64,000 nucleotides of DNA from Eledone cirrhosa (taxonomy: Eukaryota). The notes under the pieces were generated by a model that was given only the letters and a program-made list of their open reading frames with translations, did no database searches and was not told the origin of the DNA. Position 1 is the first letter of the stretch. Every line of letters starts with the position of its first letter. The DNA is taken from contig OZ024740.1 in NCBI GenBank assembly GCA_964016885.1, positions 388,182,001 to 388,246,000 on the forward strand, given 5' to 3'. The translations under genes were made by a program, and so were the position numbers. Positions 36,391 to 38,154 of the stretch are shown piece by piece.

Positions 36391-36849
36391 ATATATATAT
36401 ATATATATATATATATATATATATATATATATATATGAAAACAGGGAGAAAAAGACGATTATTAGAAAGAAAAATATTTTCTTTTCCCTTTTTATTTTTT
36501 TCTCTCTTTTTTCTGGGTTAGAAAATGATTAAAACGAAATATTTTACTTTGTGTGAAGTCTTAAGGTATTAGTTTATTTATTTATTTATTTATATATTTA
36601 AAAATTGTCTATTACCGGGTTCAGCATTTTTATGCATATATATACACACACACACATTCATGTATATATATATATATATATATATATATATATATATATA
36701 TATATATATATATATATATATATATATATATATATATATATATTTATATATATATATATATATATGAAAAACGTAATATATGAAAACGTATATATGAAAA
36801 ACGTAAAATAAGAAAATTTTAAAAATTAAAAATTAACTTACTAAAATTT

Positions 36850-36931
36850 ACTCCAACTAATTAGTTTCTGTAATGGGATAAAGATAGTTACGCAATGTAA
36901 CCATCGAGAATTCATTACGTCATCAGGGAGT
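36850..36931 (-). ncRNA. Type I hammerhead (inverted copy)
   Basis: Reverse complement of 37001-37082. Confidence 0.8.
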
Positions 36932-37000
36932 CTATTCTCAGCTTATTTTTATATGAGTCCCTAGTGTCCACGCATTGCCTGGAGACTTAGCTGAGAATAG

Positions 37001-37082
37001 ACTCCCTGATGACGTAATGAATTCTCGATGGTTACATTGCGTAACTATCTTTATCCCATTACAGAAACTAATTAGTTGGAGT
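37001..37082 (+). ncRNA. Type I hammerhead
   Basis: ACTCC-CTGATGA-c-GTAATG..CATTAC-a-GAAA-CTAATTAG-TT-GGAGT. Confidence 0.82.
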
Positions 37083-37541
37083 GAAAATTTTAGTAAATAA
37101 GTTAATTTTTAATTTTTAAAATTTTCTTATTTTACGTATTTCATATAATTGTTCTGCATCCTCCTGCATTGAACCACCTAGGTACTATGACATAACTTAT
37201 GTATTTGCTAGCATTAGTGTACATCTGTACGCATATATTGGTAAATATACTAATTCTCTATATTTATCTCCAAATTATTTATTTGTTGATCAAACCTGTC
37301 AAATCCACTACTAACTCATTGTAGTGGTAGTAGGCTTTTGTCATTTTACCATCCCACTCCTTCCGACTAGCCTCAGTGTCACGTGATTGATTCTTTAGAA
37401 TCTGCCATTTGACCAGAGACAGTGAACTTTTTCAGTGCTTTGGAATTTAGTCCCCGCTAGCTGTTCCATCCACCGAATTATTATTATTTTTATATGAGTC
37501 CCTAGTGTCCGCGCATTGCCTGGAGACTTAGCTGAGAATAG

Positions 37542-37623
37542 ACTCCCTGATGACGTAATGAATTCTCGATGGTTACATTGCGTAACTATCTTTATCCCAT
37601 TACAGAAACTAATTAGTTGGAGT
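37542..37623 (+). ncRNA. Type I hammerhead (second direct copy)
   Basis: Identical to 37001-37082, offset 541. Confidence 0.82.
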
Positions 37624-38154
37624 GAAAATTTTAGTAAGTTAATTTTTAATTTTTAAAATTTTCTTATTTTACGTATTTCATATAATTGTTCTGCATCCTC
37701 CTGCATTGAACCACCTAGGTACTATGACATAACTTATGTATTTGCTAGCATTAGTGTACATCTGTACGCATATGTTGGTAAATATAGTAATTCTCTCTCT
37801 CTCTCTCTCTCTCTCTCTCTCTCTCTCTCTCTCTCTCTCTCTCTCTCTCTCTCTCTCTCTCTCTCTCTTTCTCTCTCTCTCTCTCTCTCTCTCCCTCACA
37901 CCCTCTCTCTCTCTCTCTCTCTCTCTCTCTCTCTCTATATATATATATATATATATATATATACGTAGGTCCCGGGTTGAGTCGGGGATAACCACAGTAA
38001 GTAAGGTACTCAATACATGGCAGAGTAAAATTTGTTTATTTTATAGAAGGAGCTTCTACAGGACTAGTACTGTTTCATTCAGATGAATGAAACAGTACTA
38101 GTCCTGTAGAAGCTCCTTCTATAAAATAAAAAAAAATATATATATATATATATA

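Follow-up and report, generated by a model that had tools for sequence, protein, structure and literature searches.

An ORF-less hammerhead tandem repeat of Eledone cirrhosa with the insertion signatures of PLEs, probably a non-LTR retrozyme

We analysed a 64,000-nt stretch of the Eledone cirrhosa genome (the window; assembly GCA_964016885.1, contig OZ024740.1, positions 388,182,001 to 388,246,000) and found an element composed of 1.6 tandem units of an ORF-less 541-bp monomer and an inverted, 5'-truncated arm. This element is probably a PLE-type non-LTR retrozyme, which would be moved in trans by the GIY-YIG/RT protein of a (TA)n-targeting PLE. The element class is already known, as are, from PLEs, inverted arms, an optional tail on one side, a preference for (TA)n and a pair of RT start sites. 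No report of PLE signatures on a retrozyme, of a quantified pairing of its two kinds of end or of templated CT addition was found in the literature searched; a prior description is possible in supplements or in the PLE reviews of 2005-2006, which lay outside the search.

Three copies of one type I hammerhead (HHR) motif, identical from CTGATGA to the cleavage site, are present within the window. Their CTGATGA boxes start at 37006 (+), 37547 (+) and 36926 (-), the plus-strand pair being 541 nt apart, and cuts are predicted after 37077 (+), 37618 (+) and 36855 (-), in agreement with the original prediction of two identical plus-strand ribozymes and an inverted third copy. BLAST of the region against the window aligned 36943-37259 with 37484-37796 as a direct repeat of about 317 bp of unit sequence (97-98% identical) and assigned the inverted piece 36791-36943 (-) to unit positions 47-205. 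A full ORF-less tandem unit (36943-37483, +) contains HHR 1 (37001-37082, +) and is followed by a partial unit (37484-37796, +) that spans positions 1-317, contains HHR 2 (37542-37623, +; same sequence as HHR 1) and ends at a long (L) terminus. The 5'-truncated inverted arm (36791-36943, -) harbours HHR 3 (36850-36931, -) and ends at a short (S) terminus. Between this arm and the left (TA)n target tract (36663-36764), two extra partial copies of the S-end motif (36765-36790, -) can be read in the sequence, as can the tract itself; they are likely to represent aborted, repeated initiations. On the right, the L end continues into an interrupted (CT)n tract of about 70 units (37793-37936, +) and then into (TA)13 (37937-37963).

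The unit is non-coding: the longest ATG frame in a unit dimer is 41 aa, and eight PLE proteins gave no tblastn match to it below E 0.25. The stretch that separates the S site (37147) from the L site (about 37259), called the tail here (37148-37259, +), contains two conserved predicted hairpins and has a CTCT seed (37256-37259) at its 3' end; it is likely to be a cis element for the reverse transcriptase. Among eight family monomers, conservation reaches 0.98 in the HHR from GAAA to stem I (core to cut), against 0.85 for the tail and 0.61-0.67 for the spacer. Within that spacer, a block with a CACGTG motif (37373-37397, +) stands out with a mean pair identity of 0.88 and could be an internal promoter element. 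The direct repeats had been called LTR-like and placed around an ORF-less spacer of about 230 bp. The spacer does lack an ORF, and its approximately 224 bp of unique sequence is the remainder of the tandem monomer, not a spacer between LTRs; other loci carry up to 7 (family A, that of the window copy) or 14 (a sister family) head-to-tail units. The proposal of a special three-ribozyme design was not sustained either: the inverted arm varies in length between loci and often lacks an HHR, as in normal PLE inversion, and the antisense HHR is best read as the usual PLE inverted arm.

The HHR has a stem I of 5 bp (ACTCC/GGAGT), a stem II of 6 bp (GTAATG/CATTAC) with an inner hairpin of 9 bp (GATGGTTAC/GTAACTATC), a stem III formed by the palindrome CTAATTAG (37068-37075 in HHR 1) and the cleavage triplet GUU, and the core of HHR 1 consists of CUGAUGA, a C-A mismatch over an invariant G-C pair, and GAAA. 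The extra hairpin, the palindrome, the mismatch and the triplet are all present as first described, but the mismatch and the triplet, which it had been suggested may reduce activity, are both family consensus and so not likely defects of the window copy (C at the stem II foot in 170/172, opposing A in 186/188, UU in 182/189 and 185/190). A mismatch at the stem II foot also occurs in other HHR families of this genome. Of 165 full HHR units, 137 keep an intact core. In an alignment of 14 HHRs, 93.5% of cells pair, slid-partner controls pair at 35-43%, and the G-C at the stem II foot is invariant; double-sided changes affect 8 of 22 pairs (3/6 in stem II and 5/9 in the inner hairpin), counts that are not independent events since the 14 HHRs are mutually related. 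Cervera and de la Pena (2014, PMC4209133) describe PLE HHRs as typically acting as dimers and showing little activity in vitro, with a palindromic helix III and an additional base ahead of G10.1-C11.1.

Structure predictions support the earlier suggestion that the palindromic stem III is suited to dimeric cleavage. The predicted double-HHR fold (-45.6 kcal/mol) is 12 kcal/mol better than two single folds (2 x -16.8), with an inter-unit stem III probability of 0.88, and cleavage as a dimer via the palindrome is thus predicted. When a transcript of 36943-37795 is folded, the prediction clearly favours one of the two dimeric cores, that with its cut at 37618 (reciprocal stem I p=0.01), because an upstream hairpin would compete for the other core. 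The monomer folds better than its shuffles (z -5.3). The predicted release of a 541-nt monomer from an ORF-less HHR repeat is feasible in principle. The GUU/GGAGU junction of a circle equals the genomic tandem junction sequence, so that the junction test once proposed for such a circle is not diagnostic. For Xenopus dimers, cleavage in 1/9 is reported (Li 2026, 10.64898/2026.07.22.740005). Rfam gave no hammerhead match at gathering score in the whole window and, at E<=10 over 36700-38700, just hairpin-type chance matches and no hammerhead, probably because of the 51-nt stem II domain. The array of one sister family (L219, 1881-4451) has a CUGGCGA core in 5/5 units and a normal L end in (TA)n. 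HHR cleavage may therefore be dispensable, this array being possibly an insertion without working ribozymes. HHR mutants are reported to insert still in vitro (Frangieh 2024, PMC11167929).

To learn about the distribution of the family, the genome (3.0 Gb) was searched with the monomer, which yielded at least 173 matches (40 scored places out of 3,227 candidates), and with the 28-nt 3' half of the HHR, which yielded 918 exact matches as against 0 for a reversed control, showing that the motif is not due to chance. A tail-hairpin pattern from which the window's own sequence was excluded gave 5,237 matches, belonging to sister families; these are 70-87% identical and consist of ORF-less tandem units of 521-540 bp. 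We read 79 family-A loci (the 40 nearest to the window copy and 39 in genome order) and later 30 further loci. All family-A loci read hold 1-7 units of 537-543 bp joined head-to-tail; their 5' ends are ragged, and they consist of a single arm or of two arms head-to-head. Across families the arrays comprise 1-14 units of 521-541 bp. Pairwise identity among eight monomers is 0.75-0.91. Copies are dispersed over many contigs, with hundreds in the genome, and both kinds of end run into (TA)n, a microsatellite insertion bias within which target site duplications are unreadable.

The 3' ends fall at two fixed sites, unit position 205 (S) or about 317 (L), approximately 112 nt apart, and the two arms of an insertion do not share them freely: 106 of the 108 head-to-head insertions with both ends typed have one S and one L end. 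In the 79-locus family-A set this holds for 46/46 loci with both ends typed, among which L043 and L075 are local duplicates of each other; 32 loci have one end typed, and for 1 locus neither end was typed. The pairing also held in 9/9 held-out family-A loci, in two of which the ends are displaced by a few nt, and in 16/16 sister loci sampled in genome order (two ambiguous loci left untyped). Family B gave 15/15 after removal of one tail-to-tail pair of separate elements, and family D 14/15, with L180 as an S/S exception. A further set gave 6/6, together with an L/L locus that was chosen deliberately (L271, 1059-1787), whose identical inverted flanks identify it as a fold-back duplication that took in target DNA. 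The S-L segment has 29 predicted pairs in its two conserved hairpins, just 3 of them with double changes.

L ends differ from internal L sites by their CT tracts. At 48 of the 54 loci whose internal units read CTCT, the L end has at least three CT units (median 8); elsewhere this is seen in 4/33, all four being family-A loci with a mutated or neighbouring internal unit. At internal L sites, which read CTCT, three or more CT units occur in only 2/188. This dependence of the tract on the unit's own CTCT suggests reiterative synthesis; one true exception, L142 of family B, has (CT)20 at its L end with no internal CTCT. A pattern of the L anchor plus a CT run matched the genome 682 times, compared with 6 in the control. 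L040 and L272 show repeated CT/TA cycles with re-starts, and the S-motif repeats in the window are a comparable stutter at the S end. Slippage of the reverse transcriptase at initiation is likely the simplest reading of both the tracts and the repeated motifs, and template slippage is known for LINE 3' repeats (PMC3747384). The duplicated ends of L271 differ, (CT)5 versus (CT)7, which indicates that later DNA slippage also alters tract length. The (CT)n tract in the window was likely written at insertion from the unit's CTCT and then altered by slippage.

An alternative, which we regard as unlikely, is that the tracts were not written by a reverse transcriptase and are either pre-existing compound microsatellites chosen as targets by microhomology or products of post-insertion slippage beside (TA)n. 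Compound (CT)n(TA)n tracts unrelated to the family do exist, no empty alleles were seen, and the unequal ends of L271 fit this view. However, CT is found at only 1-2% of background TA-tract edges (9/1122 and 6/298), none of the S ends listed directly abuts a CT run, and the L ends at the same site in sister families are free of CT in 29 of 33 cases, the other four being the family-A copies already mentioned. The rarity of expansion at internal CTCT sites also speaks against slippage by itself, as does tract length, which shows no trend with an age proxy (rho 0.01, n=58).

The two arms of an insertion derive from a common haplotype: opposite arms mismatch at 41/1488 subfamily SNPs, as against 0.36 between loci, and the distances in the subfamily haplotype comparison of opposite arms are 0.029 vs 0.058. 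Such sharing would also result if the inverted arm arose when the first cDNA or an antisense template was copied by snap-back (self-priming), the second end being set by microhomology joining and not by a second priming, a route that has been proposed for PLE palindromic junctions (PMC3846280). In its favour, one arm is contained in the other in 40/55 insertions, the L271 fold-back takes in flanks, and inner junctions gather on short palindromes (14/142 ends lie no more than 2 nt from one 8-mer). Neither arm is a substring of the other, however, in 15/55 insertions (two further insertions have no called junction), which means that simple snap-back copying cannot be the general route. It also does not predict the strict S/L pairing, the arms seldom begin at an identical position, and the stutter at the S end in the window and at the L ends of L040 and L272 is what would be expected if both ends were starts of synthesis. 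We therefore judge snap-back copying improbable. Together, the S/L pairing, the common haplotype and the 15/55 non-substring arms suggest dual-site priming. Inner junctions end within 15 nt 3' of the HHR cut in 16/142 cases compared with 3.9 expected; these ends fall on an 8-bp palindrome, and 4-6 ends gather on each of two palindromes like it, making run-off at the HHR cut suggestive only.

Units of one insertion share subfamily SNPs, as expected from one RNA source, and otherwise differ mostly privately, with 409 unshared against 31 shared changes. In 35/62 insertions, units with and without a 4-nt indel, situated about 20 nt 3' of the cut, occur together. In two family-A arrays, L017/L029 and L039, the units show an alternation of period 2, at 3 and about 12 sites, which may reflect either a dimer template or duplication of a dimer, and a sister array of 14 units (L216:8698-9901 plus L217:1-5884) has mixed cores and recurring unit variants that suggest satellite-like DNA duplication. 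A pure monomer rolling circle was rejected as insufficient on its own, given the mixed indel, the alternation and the recurring variants; multimers, dimer circles and later DNA duplication are all possible templates or sources, and these data are compatible with each of them.

These arrays are also the basis for regarding the family as a satellite-like PLE pseudo-LTR remnant, spread mainly by DNA-level duplication with the HHR as an inactive passenger. Local amplification from pLTRs has been proposed (Li 2026, 10.64898/2026.07.22.740005), and the 14-unit array, the period-2 alternation of L017 and L039 and the altered core of L219 would fit it. The copies nevertheless occur on many contigs, each of 1-7 units and with its own retrotransposition-type ends, the units of one insertion differ mostly privately, and the HHR covaries across families with its core largely intact, which leaves such an origin very improbable. 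A viroid-like element or plant-type LTR retrozyme with HHRs of both polarities and symmetric RNA rolling circles, to which the HHR on each genomic strand of the window and the stable monomer fold might point, is scarcely credible and was largely refuted by the locus survey, as motif scans place the HHR on just one of the unit's strands, the minus copy is an inverted fragment of that strand, variable in length and often lacking the HHR, the HHR is of type I and not type III, and the arrays are tandem and not LTR-flanked.

We then searched for an autonomous partner. A profile search for GIY-YIG (PF01541) gave 10,597 candidates and at least 150 matches, from which 40 loci were examined (20 top-scoring and 20 with long frames); no autonomous partner sharing sequence with the unit was found among these 40. 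Only L119 and L108 (the latter read in part) contain the element, and L119 was rejected as a partner, its element being a separate insertion behind a long TA tract. Searches for diverged copies and variant patterns returned merely more ORF-less units or chance matches. No copy at the family-A and sister loci read runs on into an RT plus GIY-YIG ORF, so copies joined to a PLE ORF, which would have argued against the original prediction, were not encountered. PLE pieces lie near some copies, with a TA tract in between wherever flanks were inspected; the tblastn searches with PLE proteins covered the window, L001-L090, L131-L185 and L221-L270. PLEs with RT and GIY-YIG that end in (TA)n are abundant in this genome. 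Sampled ORFs have RVT_1 and GIY-YIG domains and, by eye, a CX4CXXC linker, which Craig (2021) gives for Neptune/Nematis, and most PLEs whose 3' region was read end in (TA)n soon after an HHR-like motif. We infer that a PLE enzyme moves the element, with no partner found among the 40 loci. In the 3' regions of L111, L112, L117, L120 and L129, the HHR-like motif has, by eye, a TTGAAAA core in place of CTGANGA; the PLE families concerned carry ORFs, and the core is common to their copies.

Around the element, HHR elements of at least four families are piled up in TA tracts. A frame-broken PLE-type element at 32340-36180 has ORF pieces at 33372-35699 (-) that look RT-like and GIY-YIG-like by eye, and atlas neighbours of these pieces carry HTH_animal/RVT_1. 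It has inverted arms of its own, one with a tail of about 100 nt and one without, and no similarity to the retrozyme unit. Two near-perfect fold-backs, at 36197-36390 and 37975-38135, derive from two different HHR families: each consists of a truncated 3' half that ends in (TA)n, and both families recur at other loci. A complete type I HHR of another family lies at 38523-38610 (+), with CTGACGA, a long stem II and a stem III of CCG/CGG. Farther away, LINE-type ORFs with RVT_1 are located at 11739-15353 (+), which additionally has endonuclease and zf-RVT domains, 16197-18167 (-) and 22178-23905 (-), and a frame at 42241-43329 (+) has a GIY-YIG-like terminal segment by eye and no Pfam match.

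Among known systems, metazoan non-LTR retrozymes (PMC7229834; 10.64898/2026.07.22.740005) share with the element tandem units that are ORF-less, low in GC and provided with a single type I HHR, a range from dimers up to multimers, a weak and palindromic helix III that lends itself to dimeric cleavage, and their occurrence alongside PLEs. At 541 nt, the unit is longer than the RNAs in Cervera and de la Pena (2020, PMC7229834), which measure 170-400 nt, but falls within the 51-972 bp range of Li et al. (2026, 10.64898/2026.07.22.740005). Its stem II is lengthened by a hairpin, and it has inverted arms, two fixed termini, (TA)n targeting and terminal (CT)n, which those accounts, as far as consulted, do not describe. 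Whereas the retrozymes of Li 2026 could be matched to known PLEs through their pLTRs, a match of this kind was not found among the 40 GIY-YIG loci examined here.

EN+ PLEs with pLTRs (Penelope/Poseidon, Neptune, Hydra, Naiad; PMC8557442, PMC3846280, PMC4209133) share with the element 5' truncation, partial tandems and an inverted, 5'-truncated head-to-head copy, as well as a tail at one end and the (TA)n insertion bias (PMC8557442, PMC3846280), and an HHR upstream of the termini with a palindromic helix III and an extra base before the G-C at the helix II foot. The element differs in lacking an ORF, in a tail of about 112 nt compared with 30-40 in the PLEs described, in the near-absolute S/L rule where their tail is said to be often at one end, in the apparently templated (CT)n at one end, and in an extra base on each side of the foot of helix II. 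An autonomous EN+ PLE was rejected, the unit being without an RT plus GIY-YIG ORF. For Poseidon_Ac in vitro (Frangieh et al. 2024, PMC11167929), the tail is likewise bounded by a pair of internal RT start sites, and both strands of an AT-rich target are cut and extended by a protein predicted to be dimeric; the report gives no strand difference in start site and initiation without target homology, unlike the element, whose S and L sites are AU-repeat-like and match (TA)n, whose ends are anticorrelated and one of whose ends stutters. Non-autonomous Chlamys PLEs such as MRC1 (PMC8557442) are also multicopy head-to-tail insertions dependent on PLEs, but they share 3' sequence with autonomous families and most Chlamys are described as lacking canonical HHRs. 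Plant LTR retrozymes, as summarised in PMC7229834, resemble the element in two HHRs in direct repeats around a non-coding stretch and in release of unit-length RNA; they have type III HHRs, true LTRs, PBS/PPT and a 4-bp TSD and depend on Gypsy, and the type I topology and tandem arrays found here rule out an assignment to them.

In the PLE-type retrozyme that we favour, tandem arrays would be transcribed, and dimeric cleavage by the HHRs through the stem III palindrome would likely yield multimers, monomers or circles. The tail with its two hairpins would be bound by a PLE protein, which would nick a (TA)n tract on both strands and, on RNA of a single haplotype, prime one strand at S and the second at L. 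At initiation, the enzyme may slip on the short CU/AU-repeat template, which would produce (CT)n at L and sometimes repeated start motifs, and the two 5'-truncated cDNAs would be joined head-to-head at short overlaps, giving rise to the 'antisense' HHR. More speculatively, and with rather less confidence, the PLE RT could be an asymmetric dimer obliged to prime the (TA)n strands at two fixed sites, with a telomerase-like reiteration that writes (CT)n/(TA)n at thousands of loci and makes its own future targets.

The origin of the inverted arms and one-sided tail of PLEs is stated as an open question by Craig (2021), and the enzyme moving animal retrozymes is presented as still a hypothesis (Cervera 2020, PMC7229834; Li 2026, 10.64898/2026.07.22.740005). 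Our findings place every PLE insertion signature on an ORF-less HHR unit and thereby tie retrozymes to PLE enzymology by mechanism, beyond co-occurrence. They make a sharp prediction for the existing in vitro system, namely that S primes one strand and L the other, and the sister families without CTCT provide a natural control for templated repeat addition, which, if true, would link PLE RTs to telomerase-like reiteration and to the birth of microsatellites. Less exotic than a 'three-ribozyme element', the family is an unusually clean record of insertion by what is likely a PLE enzyme.
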